From an uncultured Desulfobacterales bacterium (GTDB lineage Bacteria > Desulfobacterota > Desulfobacteria > Desulfobacterales > B30-G6), in contig CAYVMI010000018.1 in the NCBI GenBank assembly GCA_964452555.1, forward strand, positions 32,329 to 96,328: a stretch of DNA of 64,000 nt, written 5' to 3'. How positions within the stretch are numbered: position 1 is the stretch's first letter; each line of letters starts with the position of its first letter. The notes beneath the pieces were generated by a model, which was given only the letters and a program-made list of their open reading frames with translations, was not told the DNA's origin and ran no database searches. Both the position numbers and the translations under genes were made by a program. Below are positions 3,996-62,442 of this stretch, one piece after another.

Positions 3996-4148
3996 AATAC
4001 TACTTTAGCCTTTTAGGTATTTAGACTGTAGGCAGTAGGCGTTCAACCGCCGAAGAGCCTATTAATTCTGCTTAATGCTTCATTTGCCTTAAGCTATAAG
4101 CAACTGTGGCATTTGCCTTAGTGCTTAAAGCTGAACTCGCCCCTTCCT

Positions 4149-4234
4149 GTCATTCCCTCGGAAGAGGGAATCCAGTCAACACCGTCTGCTAATAGCTAAA
4201 GGCTTTTCTGGATCCCCGATTGCTCGGGGATGAC
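4149..4234 (+). repeat. Dual-hairpin REP-like element, copy B
   Basis: gtcATTCCCTCggaaGAGGGAATccag ... ctgGATCCCCGattgCTCGGGGATgac; the first stem differs from copy A by a compensatory pair (G-C to T-A). Confidence 0.85.
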
Positions 4235-4405
4235 ATCCGTATGTTGGGATGTTCGATGTTAAAGCAGTTTATGCTGGATACTGCTTTAGCTTTTTAGGTG
4301 TTTAGACTGTAGGCTGTAGGCGTTTAACCGCCTAACAGTCAAAAAGTCTTCAGCCTAACAGCCTTGACTCCTGAATTCTGTCTTCTGACTTCTGTCTCCT
4401 GTCTC

Positions 4406-4615
4406 CTAAACTAACGATCTCGCCTTCTTCACATCCCCCACCAGCTCGATGTTGCCGCAGTCCAGACACATAAAACCTTTTACAGCCAAGTCGGCTGTCT
4501 GCATCGCAAAAAAATTGACGCTATCCGGTCGAAAATATACCCTGCCGGATGATTGAGCCTTACCCGCGGCCATTTTTTTGCTGCCGCATCGCAAACAAGA
4601 TTTTTGATCGGTCAT
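4406..4615 (-). CDS. Small zinc-ribbon protein (CxxC ... CxxC), function unknown
   Basis: 69 aa; CLRCGS ... CLDCGN pairs; isolated between two repeat-filled spacers inside the pilus operon. Confidence 0.5.
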   Translation of the reverse strand: MTDQKSCLRCGSKKMAAGKAQSSGRVYFRPDSVNFFAMQTADLAVKGFMCLDCGNIELVGDVKKARSLV

Positions 4616-4835
4616 GGTTGTTGTCTCTTTTCCTTGGTTTTTATTAATGTCGTATTCTCATTCCCCATTTTATCGAAATGAAAAGTAAAGGCCAGGATGC
4701 CGGATGCTTGATCCTTGATGCTAGTTGCTGGATGCTGGTCAACCCGCAACCCAATTCCCGTAACCCTTCACACCTCCAAACCTACACCCTCCAACCCTCT
4801 CTAACAGCCTAACAGTCTTCAGCCTAATAGCCTGG

Positions 4836-12068: not shown

Positions 12069-13538
12069 ATGCTTAAACTGAAAACTATTGATCTCCAAAA
12101 GGAAAAGGTTGCCACAGTGGCGGTGCCCGTATGTGAGGATAAAGACATTCACACAGGGGTTTTATCCAAACTTGTGGCCCAGGCCAAAAAGATAGAAGAA
12201 TTTAGCGCCAAAAAAGACGAGGTTCTCACCCTTTACAATCCTGATGGAATCCAAGCTGAACGGGTGGTATTTATTGGCCTGGGAAAACAAGCTGACCTTG
12301 AGCCTGAAAAACTTCGCTCGCTTGCCGGTAAGGCTGTAGCGGCTTGCATTAAAAATGGTCTCAAAGAAATTGTCATCGCCGCCCCGACCCTAAAGAAAAT
12401 TCCCACTTCCGAATCCGATACGCTGACCGCTTTGCTGGAAGGTGCCTGTCTGGCAAATCACGTATTTGACCGCTATAAAAAAGAAAAAAAACTCAAACCG
12501 CTTAAAAACATATCTCTGCATGTATCCGCCGGGAGTGCTAAAAAATATGCGCGAATGCCCAAACGAATCCAAACGATCTGTCAGGGAACACTGTTAGCCC
12601 GAGATTGGATCAGCACGCCCTCCAATGATAAAACCCCGGCTCAGTTGGCCCGGGCCTTTGTCAACCTGGCCCGCAAAGCCCAACTCAGAACCAGCGTTTT
12701 AACCCCCAAACAGCTGCAACAGGGTAAATTCGGCGCACTGCTGGCTGTCGCCGCCGGTAGTGACAATACGCCCCGTCTGGCTACCCTGGAGTATGCCCCC
12801 AAGAATTGGAAAAAAACGGTTGTTCTGGTGGGCAAAGGGGTCACCTTCGATTCCGGCGGCATCAATCTGAAACCTTCCGGTGGTTTAGAGGATATGAAAA
12901 TTGATATGTCCGGTGCCGCCGCCGTGGCGGCTACGCTATTGACCGTGGCCAAACTCAAACCCCGATCACGCGTCATCGGCGTCATGCCGCTGGTGGAAAA
13001 CATGGTTTCCGGAAGGGCAACGCGACCGGGTGACATTATTAAAAGCTATGCCGGTAAGACCGTCGAAATCGGCAATACCGACGCGGAAGGAAGACTGATC
13101 CTGATCGATGCCATGGCCTATGCCCTAAAAAAATACAAGCCGGATGTGATGGTGGACATCGCCACCCTGACAGGTGCCTGTGTGGTAGCTCTGGGCGAAA
13201 AAATCGCCGGCCTGTTTACCCGCGACGATGCCTTGGCCGAAACCCTTTTGTCTGCCGGCGAAAAGACCCATGAGCGCCTGTGGCGGATGCCCTTGCCCGA
13301 TGACTATTTAAAACTCATGAAAAGCGAGTTTGCCGACCTGAACAACATGAGCAGCACCCGCTGGGGCGGCGCCATTACGGCGGCCCTGTTTCTGTCCGAA
13401 TTTACCGAAGGCACGCGCTGGGCCCATATCGATATTGCCGGCCCGGCCTACCAGAAAAAGGCCAGCGAATACTGCCCGGCCGGCGGAACCGGATTCGGTG
13501 TGAGGCTGTTTTGTGATCTGATTGACAACCTTAAATAG
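12069..13538 (+). CDS. pepA: Leucyl aminopeptidase (M17)
   Basis: 489 aa; VGKGVTFDSGG, NTDAEGRL motifs. Confidence 0.95.
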   Translation: MLKLKTIDLQKEKVATVAVPVCEDKDIHTGVLSKLVAQAKKIEEFSAKKDEVLTLYNPDGIQAERVVFIGLGKQADLEPEKLRSLAGKAVAACIKNGLKEIVIAAPTLKKIPTSESDTLTALLEGACLANHVFDRYKKEKKLKPLKNISLHVSAGSAKKYARMPKRIQTICQGTLLARDWISTPSNDKTPAQLARAFVNLARKAQLRTSVLTPKQLQQGKFGALLAVAAGSDNTPRLATLEYAPKNWKKTVVLVGKGVTFDSGGINLKPSGGLEDMKIDMSGAAAVAATLLTVAKLKPRSRVIGVMPLVENMVSGRATRPGDIIKSYAGKTVEIGNTDAEGRLILIDAMAYALKKYKPDVMVDIATLTGACVVALGEKIAGLFTRDDALAETLLSAGEKTHERLWRMPLPDDYLKLMKSEFADLNNMSSTRWGGAITAALFLSEFTEGTRWAHIDIAGPAYQKKASEYCPAGGTGFGVRLFCDLIDNLK

Positions 13539-14351: not shown

Positions 14352-14480
14352 GTACCTGAGTTGAGCGATTGTCGAGGTTGCCGCATATACAAGGAAGATG
14401 CTTTTCCGCTATAGTTGACTATGCGGGACAGCATCTGACGCCGTAGATGTGGTGAGATCGGCAATCCCGGAGGGTTTTAG
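14352..14480 (+). repeat. Rod-like structured repeat (about 113-nt core), copy 1
   Basis: attgtcgaggttgccg...agatgct..ccgctatag-ttga-ctatgcgg..agcatct...gatcggcaatccc; near-identical to 18842..18969. Confidence 0.8.
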
Positions 14481-16390: not shown

Positions 16391-16543
16391 CTAAGGGTTC
16401 CAGGAGTCAAGGATCCAAGGGGTCGAGTGAACAAACAAATCGCTGTGAGCTTTTTGCTTTAAGCTGCAAGATAAGGAGCCAAGAGCTAAAAACGAAGAGC
16501 TTATCACTTGAATCCTCGGCTCCTTGAATCCTCGAATCCTTAG
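16391..16543. repeat. Word-tile inverted arms in the etfB / FeS-oxidoreductase spacer
   Basis: ctaagggttccaggagtcaaggatccaagg (16391..) versus cttgaatcctcggctccttgaatcctcgaatccttag (..16543); both arms end in ctaagg/ccttag. Confidence 0.75.
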
Positions 16544-16556
16544 ACCATCAGATCCT

Positions 16557-18841: not shown

Positions 18842-18969
18842 GGCCTGATGTGGGCAATTGTCGAGGTTGCCGTAGCTACAAGGAAGATGCTGTTTCGCTA
18901 TAGTGTACTATGCGGGATGGCATCTGACGCAGTAGATGCGGTAAGATCGGCAATCCCGTAGGGTTTCAG
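18842..18969 (+). repeat. Rod-like structured repeat, copy 2
   Basis: About 14 mismatches over roughly 113 nt relative to copy 1 (aligned by eye); same orientation. Confidence 0.8.
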
Positions 18970-20878: not shown

Positions 20879-21178
20879 TTTTCCTCTCCTATTTATAAGG
20901 CTGTAGGCTATAGACTGTTAGGCTATTAGGCGCCTATAGCTCATTGTTATATGTTATAAGTTCTGTCTTAAACCTTTTAAACTTTTATACTTTATTCGCT
21001 CCCTCCAAAACTGTGATGCTGGTTGCTGGATGCTAGTTGCCGGATGCTGGGGCGCTAGGACGCTTTATAGCTGTACCGCGTAACCCGAATCCCACGACCC
21101 GAAACACAAAACCCGACCCCCGCAACCCGTTCTCTGCTTACTGCTTACTCCATACTGCTTACCGCTTCTGTCTCCTGA

Positions 21179-22110: not shown

Positions 22111-22195
22111 TGTCCCCTTGGAGGAGGGGATCGGGGATCCGGATTAGGCTCTGGGCCATCTGCAGGGACAGGATTCCCTCTTCCGAGGGAATGAC
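22111..22195 (-). repeat. Dual-hairpin REP-like element, copy C (inverted orientation)
   Basis: ggATTCCCTCttccGAGGGAATgac is the exact reverse complement of the copy B hairpin; the second hairpin is variant (gtccccttggaggaggggat). Confidence 0.75.
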
Positions 22196-22469
22196 GGGAA
22201 GGGCAAATGAAGCAGAAAGCAGTAAGGTCTAAGCGGTCAGCGGCCTAAAGCTGAAGGCTGTCAACTGCCGAACGGCATTCCAACCGCCAGCACCGAGAGT
22301 CCAGGATCAAGCATCAAGCATCCAGAACCCGGCATCATATTTTAGGGGTCAGCCGCCGTCGCCCCTTCGATATACTCAGGGCTATGACGGCCAGGGGAGA
22401 CAGAAGACAGAATGATGCTACGAGCTGCAGGTTACGAGTTGCAGGTTACGAGTTGCGAGATGCGGATCC

Positions 22470-22550: not shown

Positions 22551-22633
22551 AAAGTAGTTAACTGTTAAGGAGTAAAATCAGATAACAAGAAGCTATAGGC
22601 GCCTAACAGTCTTCAGCCTAATAGCCTATCGGC

Positions 22634-24205: not shown

Positions 24206-24371
24206 AAGGTTTCACTTTCGTTTGCGCTAATCATAAGCCACCGACCTAGTCGGTGGTCGTTGACTCTCGTATTACCTTTTAAATTCGTTTGTTATCATCG
24301 CTATCGGGATCGCTATCGGGATCGGGATCGTTTCTTGATGAGTTATGCTCTGATGTTAGTGTTTCGATTTC

Positions 24372-24419
24372 GATACCGATACCGATACCGATACCGATAC
24401 CGATACCGATACCGATACC
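24372..24419. repeat. Perfect tandem hexamer (GATACC)x8
   Basis: Counted directly; flanked by degenerate units; imperfect inverse partner atcgctatcgggatcgctatcgggatcgggatcg at 24294..24330. Confidence 0.95.
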
Positions 24420-24680
24420 GATGGGGAAGATAAGCATATCCCCATGATTTTTCAAGCAAAGAAATAGATTGGTTTTAAGTTTTAGGTTTTAAGTTTTATG
24501 CTTGTATCAAGCTGAACGCCATCAGCCTAAAACAATCCTAACACTTAAAACCTAAAACCTAAAACTGAATATAAAACCTAAAACATAGACATCAATATCA
24601 GATTTTTATATATAATTTCAATTAGTTGAGTCTTTGCCCCCCCTAAAAACATATCAAGTACCACCTAGTGCCAATTTCTA

Positions 24681-24709: not shown

Positions 24710-24734
24710 TCTCCTTTGGTTTGCGAAGCTGATT

Positions 24735-24771
24735 TGCAAACGTTTGCGCTGCTGGGATGCAAACGTTTGCG
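24735..24771. promoter_or_regulatory. Two identical 14-mers TGCAAACGTTTGCG (12-bp perfect palindrome core), 23 bp apart; candidate LacI/PurR-type operators
   Basis: Cores at 24736..24747 and 24759..24770; extra half sites gtttgcg at 24719..24725 and ttgcaaac at 24780..24787. Confidence 0.6.
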
Positions 24772-24819
24772 GTCCCGAATTGCAAACCGAGAACAGGACT
24801 ACAACCAGGAGAATTAATT

Positions 24820-33242: not shown

Positions 33243-33352
33243 CGAAAGGGTTTAGGGTTGAAGGGGTGAAGGGTGCCATTAGCTGATAGCAATCAGTTAA
33301 TAGCGAAATTCTCATTTCCTAAGGCTATTTTAAAATCCCGATTCAATCACTC

Positions 33353-33392
33353 AAAAAGCCATAGGCGATTGCCTATGGCTTTTTTGCTTTTT
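33353..33392 (+). terminator. Rho-independent terminator of the hdr-met-OMP transcription unit
   Basis: agccataggc-gatt-gcctatggct + tttttgcttttt. Confidence 0.8.
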
Positions 33393-33560: not shown

Positions 33561-33627
33561 TAATGCTTCTCTTTAGACCACCCTTAAACCCTACAAACCT
33601 CCAACCCTTCAACCCTCTCGAAAGCAG

Positions 33628-46604: not shown

Positions 46605-47009
46605 CTATAGCCTTTTAGGGCTTAATCTGTTTGATATAATCCGGGCTGCAACGGCACCGATGAAACTTCCGACGGTATTGGCCAGCATATCGGCCAAGCT
46701 GAAGGTTCTGGAAGGGACAAAATATTGATGCACTTCGTCGCTGATACCATAGGCGCTCGAGGACAAGGCGCTAATGAGTATAAGCAAGATTGCAGTTCTA
46801 GGAATCCGAGTGGTTTGAAAAGCACGGTAAAACAAAAAACCCAGCAGGGCGTAAGCGCCGGCATGCATCAGTTTATCTGCATGCGGAAACGCCGGCAGGC
46901 TATCGGATGTCGGGAGAGACGATTGGATAAAAATGGCCAGGCAGTAGATGATGATGGGGAACCAGTAGAAAAGGAAAATTTTAGTACGTGGATTTAAAGG
47001 TTTTAGCAT
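46605..47009 (-). CDS. VanZ-family membrane protein
   Basis: DKLMHAGAYALLGFL ... SDEVHQYFVPSRTFSLADMLANTVG. Confidence 0.8.
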   Translation of the reverse strand: MLKPLNPRTKIFLFYWFPIIIYCLAIFIQSSLPTSDSLPAFPHADKLMHAGAYALLGFLFYRAFQTTRIPRTAILLILISALSSSAYGISDEVHQYFVPSRTFSLADMLANTVGSFIGAVAARIISNRLSPKRL

Positions 47010-47092
47010 GAAGGTTTGTAACTACCAGTTTATCTATCAACAACTTTGCAGCTCAACTGTATTAAATACATTTTCATCATAAGATATTTTCT

Positions 47093-47200
47093 AACATCGA
47101 ACATTCAACATCCAACACTGAACATCGAATGACTTTCTCGCTAATTGCCAATAGGTTCGATGTTCGATGTTGGAAGTTCGATGTTCAATGTTCGATTCGG
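47093..47200. repeat. Inverted word-tile arms, cgaacatccaaca family, locus 1
   Basis: aacatcgaacattcaacatccaacactgaacatcgaatg / ggttcgatgttcgatgttggaagttcgatgttcaatgttcgattcgg. Confidence 0.85.
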
Positions 47201-47234
47201 CCCTATCTTGATAAACACCTCGAATGAACATCCA

Positions 47235-47462
47235 TTAAAAGCCTGTTGTCGGTCTCCGCTTACCAAACTCCTTCTCGCAGGGCGCGTTCTTGGTAACATG
47301 TTTTTTCAGCGCACCGCACCACAGGGACTGAAAGGTGTGACAACTGCCATCCAATGCATCCATTTTGGCAAAATCCGCATGCTCACAGCGCAGATCGCAC
47401 CATTTGATACGATGGGTGGTTACGCCGGCGTTATCCTTTTTTTTAACTTCTGTCTTTCCCAT
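47235..47462 (-). CDS. Small cysteine-rich hypothetical protein
   Basis: 75 aa, coding-like codon usage, 5 Cys (WCDLRCEH, GSCHTF, LWCG, APCE); no clear SD. Confidence 0.45.
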   Translation of the reverse strand: MGKTEVKKKDNAGVTTHRIKWCDLRCEHADFAKMDALDGSCHTFQSLWCGALKKHVTKNAPCEKEFGKRRPTTGF

Positions 47463-47563
47463 AACTTACATAGCTTTTTAGGTGATTAGGCTGTTAGATT
47501 ATTTGGCGGTTTTCGGTTGGCAGCCTAACAGCCTAATAGTCTTCAGTCTAACAGCCTATTGAT

Positions 47564-49477
47564 CTATTTAAATATAGCCAGGTCCAATGCCCGCTTCTCG
47601 ATATGTTCACAGGCAGTTTGGATAAAAACCTCATGGGAGACACCCATTTTAACCTTGCCATCCAATGTCCGCACGGCCAGGGTGCGCGATTCCTTTTCCT
47701 TGCCGCCGATGGTGAGGATCAAGGGAATATTGGCCAACTGGGCTTCACGAATTTTCTTGTTGAGACTTTCAGTGCGGCTGTCCACTTCCGTGCGCAGGCC
47801 GGCCTTCTCCAGGGTCTCGGTCACTTCCTGCGCATAGGGAATGAGTTCATCATTGATGGGCAGGGCCACCACCTGAACCGGTGCCATCCATAAGGGGAAC
47901 TTGCCGGCAAAATGCTCCACCAAAATACCGAGGAACCGTTCGATGGATCCCAGTACCGTGCGGTGGATCATGATGGGTCGATGGCGCTCATTGTCCTTGT
48001 CGATATATCCCAGGTCAAAGCGCTCCGGTAAAGACATATCCAATTGGATCGTACCGCACTGCCAGGTGCGCTTGAGGGCATCCTGAATATGCAGATCGAT
48101 CTTGGGGCCGTAAAAAGCGCCGTCACCTTCATTGAGCACGTATTCGCGCCCGTATTCATCCAGCGCTCCCCGCAAACCATCCGTTGCAACCTCCCATTGC
48201 TCGTCCGTGCCGATGGATTTTTCCGGTCGAGTGGAGAGCTCCAGATGGAAATCGAGTCCGAATGTTTCATAAATGCGCTGTTCCAGTTTTAAAACACCGA
48301 GTATCTCGGATCGAATCTGATCCGGTGTCATGAAAATGTGGGCATCATCCTGATGAAAGGCCCTGACGCGAAATAAACCGGATAAGACACCACTCAACTC
48401 ATGACGGTGTACCAGGCCAACCTCGGCCGCCCGGATGGGCAGTTCCCGGTAGGAATGGGGCCGATTGCCGTAAAGCAGCATACCGCCGGGGCAATTCATG
48501 GGTTTGATGGCATATTCCTCTTCATCCACCTCGGTAAAATACATGTTTTCGCGGTAATTATCCCAATGGCCGCTGCGCTCCCATAAGTGCCGTCTCAGGA
48601 TAATCGGCGTTTTGGTTTCCACATAGCCGGCGGCTTTATGTTCCATGCGCCAATAGTCCAGCAGCGTATTCCAGACAACCATACCCTTGGCATGAAAAAA
48701 TGGCATGCCCGGCGCCTCATCGTGAAAGCTGAACAGTTCCAGCGCTTCGCCGATTTTGCGGTGATTACGCTTTTTGGCCTCTTCTAGGAATCGAATGTGC
48801 TCTTTTAGCTCCTTTTTATTGAAGAAAGCCGTTCCATAAAGTCGCTGCAGCTGGGCCTTGCTCTGATCCGCGCGCCAGTAAGCACCGCTAACTTTGGTAA
48901 GCTTGATGGCTTTGACAAAACCGGTGTGCGGTACATGCGGCCCCCGACACAGATCAGTGAAATCCCCCTGCTCATAAAAAGATATGGCGCCGTCTTCCAA
49001 ATCAGAAATCATTTCGAGTTTGTAAGGTTCATGTTTATAAAAATCCAGTGCTTCTGCCTTGGGCACCTCTCTTCGTCGAATGGGAATTTTTTTCTTTATC
49101 AGTTTTTTAATTTCCGCTTCGATTTTTGGAAAGTCATCCTTGGAAATCGGCGGCATATCGATATCATAGTAAAATCCGTCTTCAATTACCGGTCCGATGG
49201 TCAGTTTGGCATCTTTATATAAGCGTAGTACTGCTTGGGCCATGACATGGGCAGCACTGTGACGCATAATATCCAGGGCTTCTTCATCCCGGGTGGTGAT
49301 CAATCGGACGGCGGCATCCTGATCTAGTTCGGTATATAGATCTACGATCTGGCTATTGAGCTCCATGGCCACGCTATCTCGCGCCAATCCTTCAGATATG
49401 CTTGCCGCAATATCCCAGCCGCTGGGATGTCCTTCAAAAGACTTTTTGCTTCCGTCTGGAAATGTGATATTGATCAT
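47564..49477 (-). CDS. thrS: Threonine--tRNA ligase
   Basis: TGS, editing, class II core and anticodon-binding domains recognisable. Start moved to MINITFPDGS (ATG 49477, AAGGTGGA upstream). Confidence 0.95.
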   Translation of the reverse strand: MINITFPDGSKKSFEGHPSGWDIAASISEGLARDSVAMELNSQIVDLYTELDQDAAVRLITTRDEEALDIMRHSAAHVMAQAVLRLYKDAKLTIGPVIEDGFYYDIDMPPISKDDFPKIEAEIKKLIKKKIPIRRREVPKAEALDFYKHEPYKLEMISDLEDGAISFYEQGDFTDLCRGPHVPHTGFVKAIKLTKVSGAYWRADQSKAQLQRLYGTAFFNKKELKEHIRFLEEAKKRNHRKIGEALELFSFHDEAPGMPFFHAKGMVVWNTLLDYWRMEHKAAGYVETKTPIILRRHLWERSGHWDNYRENMYFTEVDEEEYAIKPMNCPGGMLLYGNRPHSYRELPIRAAEVGLVHRHELSGVLSGLFRVRAFHQDDAHIFMTPDQIRSEILGVLKLEQRIYETFGLDFHLELSTRPEKSIGTDEQWEVATDGLRGALDEYGREYVLNEGDGAFYGPKIDLHIQDALKRTWQCGTIQLDMSLPERFDLGYIDKDNERHRPIMIHRTVLGSIERFLGILVEHFAGKFPLWMAPVQVVALPINDELIPYAQEVTETLEKAGLRTEVDSRTESLNKKIREAQLANIPLILTIGGKEKESRTLAVRTLDGKVKMGVSHEVFIQTACEHIEKRALDLAIFK

Positions 49478-49618
49478 TGGTCCACCTTGTACGTCGAAGA
49501 ATAAATAACTTGGGGTTAAAACCTTAACAATCCACGCCAACCGGCGTGAAAACTCTATTTGAGAATGGACCCAAGTTAGGTCAATAGGTGCAATGGGTCA
49601 AGAGCAAATTGAGGTGAT

Positions 49619-50758
49619 ATGCCCTTCAACATGAATCCAAAATATGAATTAATCGACACGCCGGAAGGTTTGGAGCGCCTCGTATGCAACCTCGGGGGGC
49701 TAAATGTAATGGCCGTGGATCTGGAAGCCGACTCCATGTATCATTTCCAGGATCAGGTGTGCCTTATTCAACTGGCAATAAATGGTAAAATTTATATTAT
49801 CGACCCCATCAAGCTTGGATCGATTGAGCTGCTCGAACCATATTTTCTCGACCCACGCATCCGCAAGATCTTCCATGGTGCTGATTATGACATTCGCTCG
49901 CTATTTAGAGATTTCGATATCGTCATTCATAATCTGTTTGACACGGAACTTGCCTGCAGGTTTTTAGGCATCCAGCAAAGTGGTCTGGATGCTGTGATCC
50001 AAACCTTTTTCCAGGTAAAACTGGAAAAAAAATACCAGAAGAAGGATTGGTCCAAGCGGCCCCTGCCGCCGGACATGATAAATTATGCTGCCAAGGATGT
50101 AGAGTATCTGCTTCAGCTTTCAGAGATCTTGGAGCAAAAACTAATCCAAAAAAATCGGCTCAGCTGGGTCGAGGAAGAGTGCCGGCTGCTCAGCAAAGTC
50201 CGCCCCAATACCAACCATGATGCGCCGCTGTTCCTGAATTTCCGAGGGGCGGGCAAGCTGAAACCCAGGGAGCTTGCCATCTTGGAGGAAGTATTGATCT
50301 GGCGCCGGGAAACCGCACGTAAGAAGGACCGACCGCTTTTCAAAATAATAGGGAATCACAATATTTTGAAGCTAGTCCACAAGCTGCCTCGAAGCAAAGA
50401 TGAATTGGTTGAAAGTAAAACCCTAAGTACCAAACAGCTTCACATGTTCGGCCACCAGTTGATAGAGGCCGTCGAACGAGGTCTCAATGCGCCGGAGGAT
50501 GATCTGCCGGTATATCCCCGAGGGCGGGCACCGCGTATTTCCGAAACCGCCTCTCGTAAAGTCAGCCGATTGAAAAACTGGAAAGAAGCTAAAGCTGAAA
50601 AACTGTCCATTGATCCGGCCTTGATCTTGAACAAAACACAAATCATGGAGATCGTAAAAACGAAGCCGGTTGACCTTCAGGATCTGAGTGACATCAATGG
50701 TATCAAGGCCTGGCAGGTACGAGAATTTGGTGAGGAGATTGTCAGGTGTCTGCAATAA
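49619..50758 (+). CDS. rnd: Ribonuclease D (DEDD 3'-5' exonuclease + HRDC)
   Basis: VAVDLEADS ... FHGADYDI ... YAAKDVEYL motifs. Confidence 0.85.
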   Translation: MPFNMNPKYELIDTPEGLERLVCNLGGLNVMAVDLEADSMYHFQDQVCLIQLAINGKIYIIDPIKLGSIELLEPYFLDPRIRKIFHGADYDIRSLFRDFDIVIHNLFDTELACRFLGIQQSGLDAVIQTFFQVKLEKKYQKKDWSKRPLPPDMINYAAKDVEYLLQLSEILEQKLIQKNRLSWVEEECRLLSKVRPNTNHDAPLFLNFRGAGKLKPRELAILEEVLIWRRETARKKDRPLFKIIGNHNILKLVHKLPRSKDELVESKTLSTKQLHMFGHQLIEAVERGLNAPEDDLPVYPRGRAPRISETASRKVSRLKNWKEAKAEKLSIDPALILNKTQIMEIVKTKPVDLQDLSDINGIKAWQVREFGEEIVRCLQ

Positions 50759-50768
50759 GGGCAGGGAT

Positions 50769-50862
50769 GGTGGGTTGAAGGGTTGAGATTTGGAGGGTTA
50801 GCCGAAAATGGAATTGAGTTGGCCCTACCCTAATACCCTCCACCCCTAATCACCCTAAACCC
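50769..50862. repeat. Inverted word-tile arms directly after the rnd stop
   Basis: ggtgggttgaagggttgagatttggagggttag / ctaccctaataccctccacccctaatcaccctaaaccc. Confidence 0.8.
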
Positions 50863-50920
50863 TATGGCCAATCCCATACTGAATCTATAAACTAGAAAAA
50901 TCGTTTAAAAATCAGATCAA

Positions 50921-52864
50921 ATGAAAAAAGTACACACCGTCTGCTCGCGTGACTGTCCGGATGCCTGCTCCTTGATTTTTGAATTAAATGCACAGCATCA
51001 GATCCATTCGGTTCACGCAGATTCCGACCACCCCCTTACCCGCGGAATCATCTGTCCCCGCAGCGCTCGCGATCGGGATCGTCTGCAAACCAATCGCATT
51101 GATGCCCCCTACTTGAAGGGATCCGCAGGATTCAAAAAAATCAGTTGGGCCCGCGCCCTTGATCTGGTTTCCCAAAAACTGGGCAAGACCTTGGCAGAAC
51201 AAGGGCCTCAGCAAATTCTCTACCTGAGTTATCCCGGCAATACCGGTATGCTCGCCAACACATATCCAAAACGGTTATGGAATGCCATCGGGGCTACTCA
51301 AACTGACAGGGCCCTGTGCAGCAAATCCGGTCATAGCGGCATTTCCCTTCATTACGGCGAAAGCTACGGTGCCAATCCGCTGGATATATCTGATATGGCC
51401 CTCGTGAATTTCTGGGGGCTTAATGCCGCCGTTAGTGCTGCTCATTATTGGCAGCTGGCTCGTCATGCACGCAAGTACAATCAAACCAAGATTGTGGTTG
51501 TGGATCCCATTGAAACGGTCAGCGCCCAAAAAGCAGACCTCTGGATTCGCCCTAATCCCCAAACCGATGTGGCCTTGGTTTATGGGGTTTTAAACCAACT
51601 CATCTCAGACGGCAGACATGATCAAGACTTTCTAGAAAAATGGACCACCGGATTTGAAGCTTTGCGGGCTGAGGCAGCCAAGTGGACGCCCGACAGGGTG
51701 AGATCCGTCACCGGGGTATCAATAGACGATCTTAAAGCATTGACCGAACTAGTTGATACCCATCGACCCAGCCTGACGATGATCGGTATCGGCTTGCAGC
51801 ATTGTGACAGTGGTGCAGACCAAGTCCGGGCGGTTGCTCTGCTACCTGCGGTATTGGGAATTCACCGCGGCTTTTTTTATGGTAACGGCAGTGCCTATGA
51901 CTTTGATGCCGCCCGCATCTCGGGCACATCTTTGGCCCATCAGACATCGCCAAAAATTTCTCAGGTAGCCCTGGCTGAATCCATAGCCCATGGAGAGTTT
52001 TCAGTGGTCTACGTGAGTTGTATGAACCCTGCCATGACCATCCCGAATCAAAACCTATTCCGGCGCGGTTTAGCTCGCCCAGATCTAACCTTGATAGTCC
52101 ATGAGACCCATTGGAGCGAAACCGCTCAACTGGCCGATCTGGTTCTGCCGGCGCCGACCTTTCTGGAAAAAGAGGACATCGTTATCCCCGACAGCCATAA
52201 CCGTGTACAATTCAGTCACCAGATCCTTCCGCCTGTGACCGACAGTCGCCACGAAATTTATGTCATGCAGGAAATTGCCAAACGGCTTGATCTCAATGAA
52301 CCCTGGCTGTATGAAGATGCGCTGTCGGTTGTCACTGAAATCCTGGCAGATGCCTTTGAAGACGGCCAGACAAAGGATCTGATAGACGGTAAGCGGCTCA
52401 AGCTTCGCCGCAAGCCCCTTGACCATTACGCCACGCCGTCGGGTCGCCTGGAGTTTTATGCCTATTCTGCCAAACGGCACGGCCATGCACCCCTGCCGGT
52501 TCAAAAAAACCTTTTAAGCGAAACGGACACATTCAGATTAATGGCGAGCTCGGATTCAAAATATACTCACACCCAGTTTCAGGAAGTATACGGCAATATT
52601 CCGGCAGTTGTGCATATCAATAGAGAAGATGCCACCCGATTTCAGATTTCGAACGGAGAGGAAGTTATAATCGAAAACCGAGAGGGTCGACTCAAGCTTG
52701 AAGCCGTCATATCTGATATCTTGCCAGCCGGCGTGGTGTGGTGCCCCAAAGAAGCCGCCGACCTTGATGGCGCGCCCCAGAACTGCCTGATCAGCAGCCG
52801 GCCGCAATCCCTCGGCAAAGGTCCGCGATTTAATTCAACGCGGGTGAAACTTCGTAAAGCTTAA
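50921..52864 (+). CDS. Cytoplasmic molybdopterin oxidoreductase, substrate unknown
   Basis: N-terminal [4Fe-4S] motif CSRDCPDAC; 647 aa; no signal or Tat motif. Confidence 0.8.
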   Translation: MKKVHTVCSRDCPDACSLIFELNAQHQIHSVHADSDHPLTRGIICPRSARDRDRLQTNRIDAPYLKGSAGFKKISWARALDLVSQKLGKTLAEQGPQQILYLSYPGNTGMLANTYPKRLWNAIGATQTDRALCSKSGHSGISLHYGESYGANPLDISDMALVNFWGLNAAVSAAHYWQLARHARKYNQTKIVVVDPIETVSAQKADLWIRPNPQTDVALVYGVLNQLISDGRHDQDFLEKWTTGFEALRAEAAKWTPDRVRSVTGVSIDDLKALTELVDTHRPSLTMIGIGLQHCDSGADQVRAVALLPAVLGIHRGFFYGNGSAYDFDAARISGTSLAHQTSPKISQVALAESIAHGEFSVVYVSCMNPAMTIPNQNLFRRGLARPDLTLIVHETHWSETAQLADLVLPAPTFLEKEDIVIPDSHNRVQFSHQILPPVTDSRHEIYVMQEIAKRLDLNEPWLYEDALSVVTEILADAFEDGQTKDLIDGKRLKLRRKPLDHYATPSGRLEFYAYSAKRHGHAPLPVQKNLLSETDTFRLMASSDSKYTHTQFQEVYGNIPAVVHINREDATRFQISNGEEVIIENREGRLKLEAVISDILPAGVVWCPKEAADLDGAPQNCLISSRPQSLGKGPRFNSTRVKLRKA

Positions 52865-52882
52865 GATCCATGCGGCCTGGAC

Positions 52883-53896
52883 TCAATCTCTAAATAGTTC
52901 TAAATACGCTCCATAGCCTTCCTTTTCCAAATCTTCCTTGGGAATAAATCGAAGCGCAGCCGAATTGATACAGTAACGCTGCCCGGTTGGTGCGGGGCCA
53001 TCCGGAAAGACATGACCCAGGTGAGAATCACCATGGCGGCTGCGTACTTCCGTACGAACGGTGAAGAGCTTGCAGTCTTCTTTCTCAACCAGATATTGGC
53101 GATCCAGGGGACGTGTAAAACTGGGCCAACCCGTACCGGAGTCAAACTTGTCTGTGGAGCTAAAGAGCGGTTCACCCGAAGCCACATCCACATAGATGCC
53201 TTCCCGTTTATTATCCCAGTATGCGTTCCGAAAAGGGGGTTCGGTGGCGTCCTGACGGATCACCTGATACTGATCCTCAGTCAAACGTTCACGTAACTCG
53301 TCCTCTGACGGCCGCTTGTATTTAGATTCTTCCGGCGAATCAGGCCGGCCCGTTTTGCTTACCTGCCAAATGGCCTGCAAAAATTGGTCGCGGCCGGAAC
53401 CCTGGCGGTAACGGGCATAGTGCGCTGGGTTCTTATGATAATAGTTTTGATGGTAATCCTCGGCAGCATAAAATGTCGAAAATGGCACAATTTCGGTTGC
53501 AATGGGCTTAGCATACACATCCGATTCTTCCAGATCTTGTCGCGATTTTTCAGCTATCTTCTGCTGTTCTTCAGAATGTGTAAAAATCACAGTTCGGTAC
53601 TGGGGCCCGCGGTCTACAAATTGCCCGTCGGCATCAGTGGGATCCACTGAGCGCCAGAATGCATCCAATAAGTCTTTATAAGTCACCTGGCGGGAGTCAT
53701 ATTGGACTTGAATTGCTTCCACATGACCGGAAATACCGCTGGCCACATCCTGATAGGTCGGATCCGGCATGCGTCCACCGGTGTAACCTGAGGTCACTGA
53801 TTGAACACCCTTGATTTTCTTAAAATCCGCCTCAATACACCAGAAACAGCCGCCAGCAAAGGTTGCCACTTCCATTTGTCCGGTATTAATTGCCAT
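52883..53896 (-). CDS. msrAB: Bifunctional methionine sulfoxide reductase MsrA-MsrB fusion
   Basis: GGCFWC (MsrA) and GWPSF ... RYCINS (MsrB). Confidence 0.9.
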
Positions 53897-54199
53897 ATTA
53901 AAATTCCTTAATATTTTCTAAATGTTATAAATTCTTTTTTCTTGTTAGATCACATATCACGCCGAAATCTCTTTGAATAAGGGCAGAATCGTAACAATTT
54001 AAAATCTTAGATTAATTATGCCCTAACTACAGTTAAGCATGCCCCGGTTGCTTGTCAAAACAGGAAGGCAATGTTGCCATTTTTACTTGCATTCTGATTT
54101 GGCTGCACTAGGTTATATCATGTTTACAAATCGCAACCATAGTATAACCTACTGAAATCAATTGTTAATTTTTTTTCTTTTTTAGAAGGAGGTTAAAAA

Positions 54200-54928
54200 A
54201 TGAAAAAGAATTCTATCTATCTGATCTTACTGGCTTGTCTTATTTTGCCATCAATGGCGATTGCAGAGGAAAGCCAATGGCAGGATGAGGCCGAACTGTC
54301 TTATGTCAGCACGGGCGGTAATACCGAGGTAACCAGTTTATCCGGTAAAAACAAACTTACCTACCAGTTCACGGAAAACTTCAAAGGCCAGTGGGACGTC
54401 AGTGCCCTATACGGTGAAACAGAAGATGTAAAAACTGCAGAGCGTTATGCAACCGAAGTTCGCCTGGACTATAATTTTACGGATAGGATTTATTTAGCCG
54501 GCATCGGTGGTTGGTTGCAAGATGAGTTTGCCGGGATTGAGCAACGTCTGTATCTAGGACCTGCCGTGGGCTATAAAATTCTCACCGGTCCCAAACAAAT
54601 ATTGAGCGCTGAAGGTGGTATTGACTATGTTACTGAAGAATATACCAATGACGAAGATGCCAACTTCATGCGTGGGCGTGCTTTCGGGAGCTACGAATTT
54701 ATACTGACCGAAAAAAGCAAGTTCACCCAAACCCTTGAATTGCTATATGATTTTGAAGACAGCGACAATTACAACGTCAATTCGGTTTCAGCCTTGATCA
54801 CGTCACTCAGCGATACATTTTCGATCAAGACCAGCTATGAAATTCACTACGACAACGAACCTGTTCCGGATACCCTGGAGGAAACCGACACGATCCTCTC
54901 TGTAGCCTTGATCGTCAACTTCAAGTAA
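54200..54928 (+). CDS. DUF481-family outer-membrane protein (YdiY-like)
   Basis: Signal peptide, then WQDEAELSYVSTGGNTE, typical of DUF481. Confidence 0.75.
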   Translation: MKKNSIYLILLACLILPSMAIAEESQWQDEAELSYVSTGGNTEVTSLSGKNKLTYQFTENFKGQWDVSALYGETEDVKTAERYATEVRLDYNFTDRIYLAGIGGWLQDEFAGIEQRLYLGPAVGYKILTGPKQILSAEGGIDYVTEEYTNDEDANFMRGRAFGSYEFILTEKSKFTQTLELLYDFEDSDNYNVNSVSALITSLSDTFSIKTSYEIHYDNEPVPDTLEETDTILSVALIVNFK

Positions 54929-54938
54929 GGAGAATAAA

Positions 54939-55916
54939 ATGGCCAAAGCCATCAAACTCTATCAGAACGGCGGACCGGAAGTTTTAAAATGGGAGGATCA
55001 TGATCCTGGTCCGCCGGGACCTGGTGAGGCACGCATTCGCCATCACGCTGTGGGTCTTAATTTTATTGATGTATACCATCGCACCGGTCTGTATCCTCTG
55101 CCTGCTCTGCCGGCCATTCCCGGTATGGAAGGTGCCGGGGTAGTGGAATCCGTCGGGGAAGGCGTAAGCACGGTTGCAGAAGGCGACCGGATTGCCTATG
55201 CCAGCTTACCTACCGGCGCCTATGCTCAGGTTCGCTGCATACCCGCTGATCGGCTCGTAAAAATTCCGGCGGAAATATCCTTCGATACGGCTGCCGGCAT
55301 GATGCTCAAAGGTATGACGGCGCGCTACCTCATTCGGGGTTGCTACCCGGTAACCGCTTCGGATACAATCCTCGTTCACGCCGCCTCCGGCGGGGTCGGA
55401 TCGATTGTATGCCAGTGGGCCAAACATATCGGTGCCACAGTCATCGGCACTGTGGGTTCTTCTCACAAGGCTGATCTGGCGCGATCCAACGGGTGCGACC
55501 ACCCCATTCTGTACTCCCGGGAGGATTTTGTTGAAAAAGTCCGTGAAATTACCACCGGCAAAGGTGTCGATGTGGTGTATGATTCTGTGGGACAGGCAAC
55601 TTTCCTGCAGTCGCTGGACTGCCTGCGCCCCCTTGGAACCATGGTAAGCTTCGGGCAATCTTCAGGGTCGGTTCCGCCCTTTGAATTAGGGCTCTTGGCA
55701 GCCAAGGGCTCGCTCTTTCTGACACGACCGAGCCTTATGACTTATACGGAAAATCAACAAGACCTTGTGGCCCACGCTGAGGATTTAATCGATGTGGTTC
55801 AACGGGGGGCGGTTAAAATCGATATCGGCCAAACCTATGAGCTTGCCGAGGCAGCCACAGCACATCGCGACCTGGAGGGGCGTAAGACCACCGGATCGAC
55901 CATCTTGATCCCTTAG
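54939..55916 (+). CDS. qor: NADPH:quinone oxidoreductase
   Basis: AVGLNFIDVYHRTGLYP ... PGMEGAGVV ... AASGGVGS. Confidence 0.9.
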   Translation: MAKAIKLYQNGGPEVLKWEDHDPGPPGPGEARIRHHAVGLNFIDVYHRTGLYPLPALPAIPGMEGAGVVESVGEGVSTVAEGDRIAYASLPTGAYAQVRCIPADRLVKIPAEISFDTAAGMMLKGMTARYLIRGCYPVTASDTILVHAASGGVGSIVCQWAKHIGATVIGTVGSSHKADLARSNGCDHPILYSREDFVEKVREITTGKGVDVVYDSVGQATFLQSLDCLRPLGTMVSFGQSSGSVPPFELGLLAAKGSLFLTRPSLMTYTENQQDLVAHAEDLIDVVQRGAVKIDIGQTYELAEAATAHRDLEGRKTTGSTILIP

Positions 55917-56071
55917 ATCAAATAAAACTTACTGCGAATATCGAATTATGAATTTCGATTTCATGAATTACGAAGGATGTTGTCCGTAAAATTAGTACGG
56001 ACAGTCAGGATCAAGTCCTGATTAAAAGTTGTCACTATTTAAGCTTAAAACAGTCATTCTTATTTGCCTCA

Positions 56072-56219
56072 AAATGAACATCGAACATCCAACGTCCAAC
56101 ACCCAACGTCGATTTGTGTTTGTCAGCTAATTGTATTCAGCATTTGTGGGCTTTCAGCCATGAGCAAAGAGCTACATTTCGATGTTCAGTGTTCGATGTT
56201 CGATGTTGGACGTTCATTT
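56072..56219. repeat. Inverted word-tile arms, cgaacatccaaca family, locus 2 (nested inside outer arms 55935..55975 / 56245..56272)
   Basis: aaatgaacatcgaacatccaacgtccaacacccaacgtcgat / atttcgatgttcagtgttcgatgttcgatgttggacgttcattt. Confidence 0.85.
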
Positions 56220-56272
56220 GTTACCGTCATTCAACATTTCCTGTTCAGCATTCGATATTCAAATCGATACGG

Positions 56273-57280
56273 CTAGCTGTTTTGTGTAACTTCCTTTAAC
56301 AGCTCCCGATAGTAACAATAGTTTTCAAAGGGCACGTCTGCTCTCACCCGACCATCTGCCAAGGGAATGTAGCCGCCCTGTTCAATCAGCGGCGGTACTT
56401 TACGTAAGATTTCCCTTTTTATGGCCGCTTTCCCTTTACGCAATGCATCCAGATCGATACCGCCGATGAGGCGCAAATCTTTGCCAAATTGTTTGCGCAG
56501 GTCGGTATAGTCCATGGCCGGGGTATAGACTTCACACGCCCACAAAGTATTGAATCCCCATTCCAATATACTGGGAATCAGAATCCGGGCATTGGCGTAG
56601 GTCTGGAAGATAATGGTCTCCACCTGATAACGTTTGAGTACCGCCATGATTGGCTGATAGCTCGTCAACACGAGATCTGCATACATCTGGGGGGATATCA
56701 AAGGCCCCTCATTTCCGCCGATTGGCTCACTGAAAACAGCGGCATCGATTTGAACTTTCCTGAGAAAACGTTCCAGGAGTCCGGCACAAAAATGGCCTTG
56801 AATCGCCATCATCTCACGCATCAAAGCAGGCTGATCCGTAAGCATTGTCATGACGTCGTAAAATCGAGACCAGTCCCTAACACCCATGGTCAGGAAAAAA
56901 CCGCGATGAACGTCCAACAAGAGTACGTGATCACGATCGCGCCATTTATTTTGGTGGATTTTCCAGCGCAGGGGCCAGCGCCTTTTATCATCCGGATTTA
57001 AACTTTTTTTAAACGCCTTTAGCTCTGAGTGAGTTGTCGGCCATTTCTTGATCTCCGGACGTGGTTTCGTATCCAGATCCAGGTCCTCGCGTACATCCGA
57101 AGGAAACCTGACTTGCAGTTCCCGCTTTCCGGACAAGCCCTGTCTTCGCCAGGATTTGATAACATTATCCCGAATGCCTTCCTCAAAATAGGGAACCCGG
57201 TCCGTTTCTTGGAATCCCATCACCGCGTTAAAACGCTGCCGGCTTGTCATGGATCCGGATATCTTCTGTGATTGTGTCAT
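56273..57280 (-). CDS. Uroporphyrinogen-decarboxylase-family protein (URO-D / MtaA-like)
   Basis: N-terminus MTSRQRFNAVMGFQETDRVPYFE, typical of the family. Confidence 0.7.
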   Translation of the reverse strand: MTQSQKISGSMTSRQRFNAVMGFQETDRVPYFEEGIRDNVIKSWRRQGLSGKRELQVRFPSDVREDLDLDTKPRPEIKKWPTTHSELKAFKKSLNPDDKRRWPLRWKIHQNKWRDRDHVLLLDVHRGFFLTMGVRDWSRFYDVMTMLTDQPALMREMMAIQGHFCAGLLERFLRKVQIDAAVFSEPIGGNEGPLISPQMYADLVLTSYQPIMAVLKRYQVETIIFQTYANARILIPSILEWGFNTLWACEVYTPAMDYTDLRKQFGKDLRLIGGIDLDALRKGKAAIKREILRKVPPLIEQGGYIPLADGRVRADVPFENYCYYRELLKEVTQNS

Positions 57281-61769: not shown

Positions 61770-61802
61770 CTTCTCGACCACTTCTCGACCACTTCTCGAC
61801 CA
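61770..61802. repeat. Tandem 11-mer (cttctcgacca)x3
   Basis: Counted directly, about 200 bp upstream of the sodB start. Confidence 0.9.
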
Positions 61803-62442
61803 CATCCTGTGTAAATGCGGTTTCAAGCGACCATGTCCGCAACGGTTATGGGAGCGACCGATCTTGTGTTCAACACCGCCACGAATTTTTATCGACCGCC
61901 GCAGAAACATTAAGCCGCGCGGCCAGGCCACAAGCACCGTTCCGATTGGGAATGCATGCAGGTCAGTAGCGGCTTTTTTGGAGAAAAAAACAGCGGTGGG
62001 TATTACGTCAGGCTGCCCACCTTAAGATTTTAGGCTGTATAATTAGTGTGTTAGAAAGCTTACAAGCTACAACTTCCTGCGTCTGTTAACCGTTGTCAGG
62101 ACACCAAAGAAAACCCAAAATGGCGGCTCCACCCGATTTTTTTGACGGCTTTGGTTGTCATGATACAAAACTTTAGCATTGAATAAGGTGTTGACGCACA
62201 AACTGCAGTTTGGCATATTCGATCTTTAAATTTATCTCCCATCTTTCAATTTCCTAATAATCTGTAATGACGGCAACGGCGGCGGCGATGTTTCAGTTGA
62301 TTTTCAGCCTAATTCATATGTTCTTTTCGAGCATCATTCAGAAACATCATTTTGCTTCGATCATTAACAAAATAACAAATGATACGGTTATCAGCTAGGT
62401 TTGGCGGGGTACTGTTAACGTACAATTCGATGAGAGGAAATA

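Follow-up and report, generated by a model that had tools for sequence, protein, structure and literature searches.

What kind of element forms the two heptamer-array hairpins that stand between genes in a 64,000-nt stretch of an uncultured Desulfobacterales bacterium (GenBank assembly GCA_964452555.1, contig CAYVMI010000018.1, positions 32,329 to 96,328 of the forward strand), and where did they come from? In this stretch, referred to below as the window, locus 1 lies in the order thrS, 75-aa open reading frame (ORF), hairpin, vanZ, and locus 2 fills the spacer between the convergent qor and a URO-D-family gene. An earlier reading of the letters, the original prediction, took the pair for members of a dispersed family of structured elements and not for random low-complexity sequence. 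On balance, both loci are likely to be ORF-less 'solo-stem' members of an insertion-prone family of hairpin cassettes, which is associated with the S23p protein and resembles the intervening sequences (IVSs) of 23S rRNA.

Architecture and folding of the two loci

Locus 1 and the inner part of locus 2 are imperfect inverted repeats, with arms of 40 nt (83% complementary) and 46 nt (78% complementary), respectively (Table 1). All four arms constitute imperfect arrays of period seven (Tandem Repeats Finder, period 7/14), and each holds five AACATCG-type units according to a heptamer detector that requires at least three units with no more than two mismatches per unit. Locus 2 ends in aaATGAAC...TCGAtt/TCGAAat, while the inner end of locus 1 is TCGAAT. 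With up to two mismatches allowed, the window contains 21 matches to AACATCGAACAT, whereas shuffled sequence gives 6.7 +/- 2.7 (0 of 100 shuffles reach 21); 15 of the 21 fall inside the two loci. The two window copies are closely related to each other: a rare unit, AACACTG (9 of 1643 units), occupies the fourth position both in the left arm of locus 1 and in the right arm of locus 2.

The long inverted hairpins built from related words are real, and they fold equally well on both strands. Predicted energies on the two strands are -43.1 and -47.2 kcal/mol for locus 1 (z -6.6 and -7.4) and -55.0 and -56.2 kcal/mol for the inner hairpin of locus 2 (z -5.7 and -7.8); stem mismatches recur about every 7 bp, at the variable heptamer positions 4, 6, and 7. 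The entire qor/URO-D spacer (55917-56285) reaches -107/-106 kcal/mol (z -5.6 on both strands), and its minimum free energy structure holds the outer stem, the inner hairpin, and the two extra small hairpins that had been noticed beside it, both of 8 bp. The outer inverted pair thus exists, yet it is weaker than had been implied, with 17 nt at 88% (55936-55952 / 56244-56260). The word gctaattg is indeed present in both loops; it is weak evidence of kinship, however, as an 8-mer common to two loops of such composition has a chance probability of ~0.025, and it is not a feature of the family: near arrays elsewhere it is not enriched, with only two overlapping matches nearby in L096, within the neighboring array.

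The stems are thermodynamically strong on both strands and are not intrinsic terminators. The GC-rich short stem followed by a U-tract that defines such terminators is found at neither locus: a consensus scan detected no U-tract and no terminator-like site on either strand, which leaves the implied role as a bidirectional terminator unsupported, and canonical terminators are present elsewhere in the window (e.g., 33343-33390). A promoter scan of the loci returned one promoter-like match, not above shuffles. At gathering score, neither the window nor 36 related loci matched any Rfam family; at permissive E-values, Rfam gave for both loci only generic miRNA-type hairpins far below threshold. No rRNA, tRNA, or tmRNA genes were found in the window.

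Three independent short-read Logan assemblies (L206-L208), made from three sequencing runs, contain locus 1 without a single base difference, and it is therefore not an assembly artefact; nor is there any sign of phase-variation-like slippage in the number of units. Two Logan contigs of the same organism (L001 and L002) terminate inside the right arm of locus 2 (window 56185-56187), as expected of a multi-copy repeat.

Arms shared with S23p cassettes

For the 17-mer AACATCGAACATCGAAC, contained in both loci, the GTDB species-representative genomes yielded at least 120 stretches. By record titles, the matches listed comprise 44 from Desulfobacterota/'Deltaproteobacteria', 51 from the PVC group (Verrucomicrobiota, Planctomycetota, Lentisphaerota, and others), and 25 from other bacteria, a strong taxonomic skew of the arm word. 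AACATCG hairpins are also found in the cultivable Desulforapulum autotrophicum (L097). Many of the listed stretches hold a plus-strand and a minus-strand match 20-250 nt apart. Among the matches listed, neighboring arrays within 700 nt are arranged as AACATCG...CGATGTT in 34 cases and the other way round in 9; a further 89 arrays are solitary. Arms of the family have defined ends (outer ...ATGAAC, inner ...TCGAAT), and the number of units per arm peaks at five and falls sharply at six (62 to 10; 79 to 6). The Desulfobacterota arm is a conserved string, (A)TGAACATCGAACATCGAACGTCCAACATCGAAT; this 33-nt string, with its variant unit AACGTCC and identical ends, recurs across unrelated contigs, genomes, and contexts, which independent slippage would not produce. 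Elements with two called neighbors (n = 61) lie between convergent, tandem, and divergent genes in 20, 38, and 3 cases, compared with 102/244/54 in a background of 400 spacers. A score of 39 of 132 elements 'inside an ORF' is not trusted, since in GC-rich genomes the lack of stops in the arrays lets spurious long ORFs extend across them.

Some members of the family carry a gene. In L010 and L076 the 'loop' of the hairpin is a 121-aa ORF; in L006 this ORF lies between one arm and a complete hairpin, in L052 an ORF start follows an arm, and in L005 the loop contains a C-terminal S23p remnant. The 121-aa ORF corresponds to Pfam PF05635 ('23S rRNA-intervening sequence protein', 8e-14) and NCBIfam TIGR02436 ('four helix bundle protein', 1e-24), and it matches PDB ID: 2RLD (2e-16).

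The association was also approached from the side of the gene, with loci encoding an L006-type S23p protein fetched from JGI metagenomes. More than 600 pattern matches included 347 confirmed relatives, and the analysis was performed on the best 80 (L126-L205), which are 87-97% identical to the L006 S23p at the amino acid level. By eye, nearly all of the 80 read aaaaATGAACATCGAACATCGAACGTCCAACATCGAAtgttgaatgggaaaag-ATG ... TAG-ccgttgaatgttcggtattggatgtttgtttttcATTCGAcGTTGGACGTTCGATGTTCGATGTTCgacGTTCAT. With a strict detector, a left AACATCG arm was found within 80 nt upstream of the start codon in 61 of 78 cassettes and an inverted right arm within 220 nt downstream in 65 of 70 (both arms in 46 of 68), compared with 1 array only in the other 81 kb of cassette flank. 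These cassettes, which come from sediment metagenomes and measure ~0.5 kb at full length, occupy 79 distinct genomic contexts; the upstream neighbor is co-oriented in 52 cases versus 11, and none of 20 sampled copies touches an rRNA gene. Identity between copies is 0.87 in the coding sequence, 0.78 in the arms, and 0.53 in the flank beyond them. The coding sequence is under purifying selection (dN/dS 0.11 at dS 0.48), and in conservation the arms do not clearly exceed synonymous sites (0.78 versus 0.75 identity). Cassette arms pair at -54 kcal/mol, compared with -27 kcal/mol after shuffling.

A profile HMM (nhmmer) was built solely from 119 distinct arms of the metagenomic S23p cassettes. All four window arms match it with E-values of 2.4e-11 to 1.2e-8 over profile positions 2-46, and they share with the AACATCG-armed cassettes the inverted orientation, the outer ATGAAC, and the inner TCGAA(T); the outer arrays of locus 2 match weakly, both in the correct orientations. 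Judged by these similarities, the window arms are homologous to the cassette arms, with cassettes and hairpins at many unrelated sites. The view of a dispersed structured family is thereby upheld: its arms are recognized by a profile from unrelated metagenomic copies, it is present in many phyla, and its copies are insertion/deletion polymorphisms relative to close relatives (see below).

The passage from cassette to bare hairpin is documented in other genomes, where the short loops of L092, L110, and L118 keep 'gggaaaagATGAAGAAACAGAAATAG', i.e., the leader, first codons, and stop of the S23p gene. A second conserved loop type (...ggagcgaagcga..tcatc; L007, L056, L105, L112, L119, and L120) corresponds to the stretch lying in front of the right arm in many cassettes. 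The window copies would likewise descend from ORF-bearing cassettes.

The closest known counterpart is the S23p-type IVS of Coxiella burnetii and Leptospira, in which, as in the full-length family, a PF05635 four-helix-bundle ORF lies within the complementary termini of a long stem (PMC4990558). The terminal inverted repeats of the Coxiella 23S IVS form a 28-bp stem, and three tandem GACAGAT heptamers with a degenerate fourth, variable in copy number among strains, precede the S23p start codon; the 5' cut by RNase III at the first repeat was shown experimentally, the ORF is undergoing deletion, and the extended stem-loop replaces the tetraloop of a helix (PMC4990558). Tandem heptamers in the 5' arm (GACAGAT x3-4 in Coxiella, AACATCG x4-5 here), a deletion-prone ORF, the replacement or extension of a hairpin loop, and suspected horizontal spread are common to both, and the full-length cassette is a non-ribosomal counterpart of these IVSs. 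The elements described here differ in their heptamer word and in their position between protein-coding genes rather than in 23S rRNA helix 9, 25, or 45. The window loci have the long-stem complementary termini and the tandem heptamers in the arm, but they lack two defining features of a classical IVS, the ORF and the location in rRNA.

Two further observations concern the cassettes. Many of them (e.g., L127, L130, L141, L150, L151, and L160; also L005 and L110) are nested in a further inverted pair, ccataagcgctaagtt(g/a)ttttt ... aaaataacttagcgcttatgg, and in L136, L137, L149, L162, L163, and L165 arm-leader units or truncated S23p 5' ends are tandemly repeated upstream of the full copy. Both suggest nested insertion or recombination between arms.

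Proposed insertion at gene 3' ends and competing explanations

Three relatives, with URO-D-like proteins 75-81% identical, are syntenic over the whole 46.6-57.3 kb region. In two of them the qor/URO-D spacer measures 125 nt (L124/L125) and 169 nt (L209-L211), compared with 356 nt in the window; these two keep the outer AATATCG-type arrays and a stretch homologous to small hairpin 1, which does not form that hairpin there, and they lack the inner hairpin. The outer left array, nearly unchanged in L209, is by this alignment ancestral, and the L125 counterpart of the outer right array matches the arm profile (E 1.4e-5). The inner hairpin, missing from the relatives, consequently represents a derived insertion, placed within an older and decayed pair of arrays that belong to the same word family. 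What had been described as one nested palindrome is indeed nested, but is better read as a young AACATCG hairpin within an older pair. In L123, the qor/URO-D spacer contains a different ~230-nt element (~5100-5330), a nearly perfect palindrome with the ends aaggcggatcaggtattttttcaaagcgacatatc....

At the position of locus 1, L125 has a different hairpin and L209 none, with the flanking 75-aa ORF and vanZ conserved in both. The convergent msrAB/rnd spacer, 18 nt in the window, contains in L125 a solitary arm that agrees exactly with the left arm of locus 1 over its first 24 nt and in L209 a GGCTGTAGG hairpin. The pattern is that of an insertion-prone repeat with rapid turnover at spacers facing gene 3' ends.

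A mechanism can be proposed on this basis. The elements might insert into spacers that face the 3' ends of genes, and often within the loop of a pre-existing palindrome, which would explain the nesting at locus 2. The hairpins are probably transcribed by read-through; the RNA arms would then pair into a duplex of 40-46 bp with a mismatch about every 7 bp, an expected substrate of RNase III by comparison with the Coxiella IVS. Cleavage of this kind would set or uncouple the ends of transcripts instead of terminating transcription. A cut at locus 1 would separate the thrS/small-ORF transcript from vanZ, while a cut at locus 2 would set the 3' ends of both convergent transcripts, from qor and from the URO-D-like gene. 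The two window hairpins are probably selfish relics.

Several results weigh against an origin from S23p cassettes and against the proposed role in RNA. No S23p-like ORF was detected in the six frames of the window (tblastn and phmmer with three S23p types; best E 0.2), and a blastn-short comparison of the window loops and their immediate flanks with 200 fetched loci returned only chance-level 12-14-mers. As the window loops are unlike the cassette interior, descent from an ORF-bearing cassette is deduced from the family rather than seen directly. S23p or a remnant of it accompanies the arm in only 5 of the 120 listed arm-word loci, most copies thus being ORF-less, and a linked S23p was not seen in PVC bacteria. 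Neither a target-site duplication nor a transposase or recombinase was identified. Arms pair as well with those of other elements as with their own partners (-55.5 versus -54.1 kcal/mol in 64 cassettes; likewise in 30 short hairpins from many phyla, P = 0.28), and covariation thus gives no evidence that selection acts on the RNA fold. RNase III cleavage is proposed by analogy with rRNA IVSs.

The rarity of the gene favors the best of the alternatives, in itself unlikely, that the hairpin came first: a miniature inverted-repeat transposable element (MITE), moved in trans by a transposase or recombinase, with S23p as cargo captured in some loops. Among the arm-word loci listed, ORF-less hairpins and solitary arms far outnumber those bearing the ORF, and hairpins occur in Verrucomicrobiota, Planctomycetota, and Lentisphaerota, in which a linked S23p was not seen. 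The elements share with MITEs a short non-coding form bounded by terminal inverted repeats, a presence/absence polymorphism between orthologous sites, and similar copies at different sites. A transposase-bearing relative is missing, as the ORF-bearing relatives encode S23p only, and around the arms neither the window nor the other loci show a consistent direct repeat, with the junctions of filled and empty sites placed only approximately. Captured cargo also fits poorly with the arms being present in nearly all members of the L006-type S23p subfamily, and the short loops that keep the S23p start and stop give the direction as cassette to hairpin. In addition, each S23p subfamily has a heptamer word of its own, which argues that gene and arms travel as one unit: other subfamilies are flanked by inverted arrays of AGGCACA/GGGGCAA (L009, L213, and L222; on the downstream side only in L232), by GGTGTCA arrays (L101), or by AATGAC arrays (L070).

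Structures selected by the host at RNA 3' ends (stabilizers, processing sites, or terminators), made in place by slippage and inverted duplication and not mobile, are also an improbable source. In their favor, the word-array hairpins of the window begin at or near stop codons, only 3 of 61 elements lie between divergent genes compared with 54 of the 400 background spacers, the GGCTGTTAGG hairpin downstream of thrS is conserved in L125, and some hairpin is also present there at the position of locus 1. However, neither AACATCG hairpin is kept at the orthologous site in relatives with ~80% identical genes, and slippage would not yield the same arm string, AACGTCC unit, and ends in unrelated genomes. 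The missing U-tract, terminator-like site, and covariation likewise speak against this explanation.

Arrays that serve as putative binding sites on DNA or RNA, either for nucleoid proteins or for pentameric S23p itself, are still less probable. Paired sets of five MTYCTGA heptamers in Geobacter metallireducens, drawn as hairpins, were proposed as class 3, global regulator sites for IHF/HU (PMC2700814), and TYCTGA(C) arrays with the same word are found in the window at 2789-2837 and 4365-4407. The S23p protein of Xanthomonas is a homopentamer (PMC4990558) and PDB ID: 2RLD holds five chains; the peak of arm length at five units and the co-variation of the heptamer word with the S23p subfamily would fit such a protein. 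On the other side, these are candidate sites from sequence, a 7-bp period is mismatched to the helical repeat of DNA, and other S23p subfamilies lack a clean count of five units. Co-inheritance accounts equally well for the linked variation of word and protein.

Integron attC sites with gene cassettes might be suspected from small promoter-less ORFs accompanied by imperfect inverted repeats in sediment bacteria, and the arm units GTCCAAC / GTTGGAC happen to agree with RYYYAAC / GTTRRRY, the core consensus of attC. The architecture effectively refutes them: the two arms enclose the ORF and pair together, whereas in an integron a self-contained hairpin, with R''/L''-L'/R' boxes at its base, follows each ORF of an array beside intI; the base of the stem here, ATGAAC/GTTCAT, does not constitute an R box; the window copies are set among syntenic housekeeping genes (thrS, qor) instead of a cassette array; and no integrase was seen near any copy examined. 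Chance low complexity or an assembly artefact, which the tandem heptamers and the contig breaks in locus 2 might suggest, is refuted by 100-200 shuffles, none of which reaches the observed word count or fold energies, by the identical assemblies of locus 1, and by the strong matches to the arm profile.

Table 1. Positions of the hairpins, flanking genes, and other arrays in the window
Feature	Position	Strand	Match to cassette-arm profile	Remarks
Locus 1 left arm	47090-47129		47093-47132, +, E 1.2e-8	AACATCG AACATTC AACATCC AACACTG AACATCG
Locus 1 loop	47130-47155			26 nt; gctaattg at 47140-47147
Locus 1 right arm	47156-47195		47193-47156, -, E 3.7e-11	five CGATGTT-type heptamers
Locus 2 outer left array	55935-55975		55935-55952, +, E 0.64 (weak)	AATATCG AATTATG AATTTCG ...; same heptamer family with C-to-T changes
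Locus 2 small hairpin 1	55981-56003			perfect, 8 bp
Locus 2 small hairpin 2	56004-56022			8 bp
Locus 2 inner left arm	56072-56117		56072-56112, +, E 8.1e-11	begins with the family end ATGAAC
Locus 2 loop	56118-56173			56 nt; gctaattg at 56128-56135; S23p remnant not detectable
Locus 2 inner right arm	56174-56219		56218-56178, -, E 2.4e-11
Locus 2 outer right array	56228-56272		56260-56228, -, E 0.069 (weak)	inverted partner of the outer left array; homologous to an array in L124/L125
Segment missing from the L124/L125 and L209-L211 spacers	~56027-56222			inner hairpin and ~45 nt to its left; boundaries by eye from alignments
Solitary short fragment	4236-4262	-	4260-4248, E 0.15	AACATCG AACATCC ... 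array
vanZ	46605-47009	-
75-aa Cys-rich ORF (MGKTEVKKKDNAGVTTHRIKWCDLRCEHADFAKMDALDGSCHTFQSLWC...)	47235-47462	-		directly downstream of thrS
thrS	47564-49540	-
qor	54939-55916	+
URO-D-family gene	56273-57280	-		convergent with qor, locus 2 between them
GGCTGTTAGG-type family	47481-47563, 4296-4364, 3997-4057, 2695-2727, 20899-20935, 22597-22633, 4801-4835
Inverted word-array pairs	50759-50870; 33243-33275 with 33580-33627; 24472-24584; 16400-16545
cattccctcggaagagggaatcc / ggatccccgattgctcggggatgac repeat	4150-4239, 732-817, 22167-22227, 22341-22410, 957-1025

Related repeat systems and a possible role of S23p

Repetitive extragenic palindromes and the mosaic elements composed of them (REP/BIME), known from enterobacteria and Pseudomonas, are 20-40-nt palindromes with a conserved GTAG/CTAC head and a linked Y1 (IS200/IS605-like) transposase, RAYT. 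The family resembles them as short imperfect extragenic palindromes, mostly after gene 3' ends, in clustered or nested mosaics of species-specific sequence, probably transcribed within mRNAs and causing assembly breaks. It differs in its arms of tandem heptamers (35-46 nt), in having the ends ATGAAC/GTTCAT in place of the GTAG/CTAC head, and in its linked gene, which is S23p; no RAYT was seen in the window. Neisseria Correia elements and enterobacterial intergenic repetitive consensus (ERIC) sequences are hairpins cut by RNase III/RNase E, the former with a TA target duplication and DDE-type terminal repeats. They share with the elements described here the form of 100-150-bp non-coding intergenic inverted repeats, probable co-transcription with neighbors, long hairpins, and presence/absence polymorphism among strains; here, however, no target-site duplication was found and the ORF-bearing relative encodes no transposase.

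Intergenic heptamer arrays of 2-6 units, scattered over distant phyla, have been described repeatedly, among them cyanobacterial short tandemly repeated repetitive sequences (STRR), long simple sequence repeats (SSRs), and the arrays of Geobacter. TAACTGA direct repeats of Beggiatoaceae and cyanobacteria stand just upstream of start codons (PMC4679880), and G. metallireducens also contains GGACCGG arrays (PMC2700814). Neither study ties the arrays to a PF05635 gene or to an IVS (PMC4679880, PMC2700814). PF05635 is homologous to Avd, a protein of diversity-generating retroelements (PMC10053308). The cassette protein belongs to the same four-helix-bundle superfamily, and the L009-type protein matches the Avd model weakly (1.3e-5, below cut-off); no reverse transcriptase or template/variable repeats, however, were found beside the cassettes examined.

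Both the intergenic heptamer arrays (STRR, long SSRs, TAACTGA, and the Geobacter 'global regulator sites') and the PF05635/TIGR02436 genes are very common and have had no explanation. The evidence presented here ties the two to each other, and both to the classical rRNA IVSs, whose origin has been a question since 1990; if the link is general, IVSs would be copies of a widespread cassette that landed in rRNA helices. The link between prokaryotic heptamer repeats, the four-helix-bundle family, and rRNA IVSs is apparently general and undescribed: a literature search found no connection between PF05635 genes outside rRNA and heptamer-array hairpins, and a text search for the arm sequence gave unrelated matches only. 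It is a speculative and rather doubtful extension that the heptamer-array hairpins of this genome, of many Desulfobacterota and PVC bacteria, and perhaps of cyanobacteria and Geobacter might be cis-sites of S23p, each subfamily with its own word, with the pentamer binding about five units, one protomer per unit, and ORF-less copies such as loci 1 and 2 bound, processed, or mobilized in trans by S23p from other sites of the genome. Such cis-sites would provide a function for a very large orphan protein family and would explain both the prokaryotic heptamer repeats and the origin of rRNA IVSs. At a practical level, the elements break short-read assemblies, as at locus 2, and would give 3' untranslated regions long double-stranded RNA, a point relevant to annotation and to the mapping of transcript ends in sulfate reducers.

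Of the genes around locus 1, the 75-aa Cys-rich ORF is conserved in L125 and L209, with no match in Pfam and NCBIfam searches. The window is also rich in other intergenic arrays of 7-8-nt words (GGCTGTTAGG, TYCTGAC, GGATGCT, AACCCGA, GGGTTGA/ACCCTAA, and GGTTTTA), many of them inverted pairs that start at or near stop codons. Hairpins and arrays of GGCTGTTAGG-type words form a second family, found as a rule immediately behind a stop codon; L125 retains the copy that follows thrS (13090-13180), but in L209 other word arrays have taken its place. The inverted word-array pairs listed in Table 1 are composed of GGGTTGA/ACCCTAA, GGTTTTA/TAAAACC, and GGATCCAAGG/CTTGAATCC, and two canonical U-tract terminators, situated between convergent genes, lie inside the pair at 33.2-33.6 kb. 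Small hairpins of the cattccctcggaagagggaatcc / ggatccccgattgctcggggatgac type belong to a dispersed repeat with several partial copies in array-rich spacers.

Another repeat is present in two copies (14355-14480 and 18844-18969), 86% identical over 126 nt, and forms a hairpin of ~115 nt. It folds at -56/-61 kcal/mol on the plus strand (z -4.5/-6.3) versus -37/-32 kcal/mol on the minus strand, shows apparent compensatory differences between the copies, and has no Rfam match, which suggests a strand-specific structured RNA or another MITE. A perfect (CGATAC)x8.7 microsatellite follows ATCGGG/ATCGCT arrays at 24297-24422, unusually in a divergent (5'-5') spacer. Three tandem 23-nt palindromes, GTTTGC-N11-GCAAAC, at 24719-24787, about 70 nt upstream of the plus-strand gene at 24860, look like a putative operator array for a dimeric regulator. 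Finally, a perfect 11-nt tandem repeat, CTTCTCGACCA, occurs in 3.1 copies at 61770-61803.

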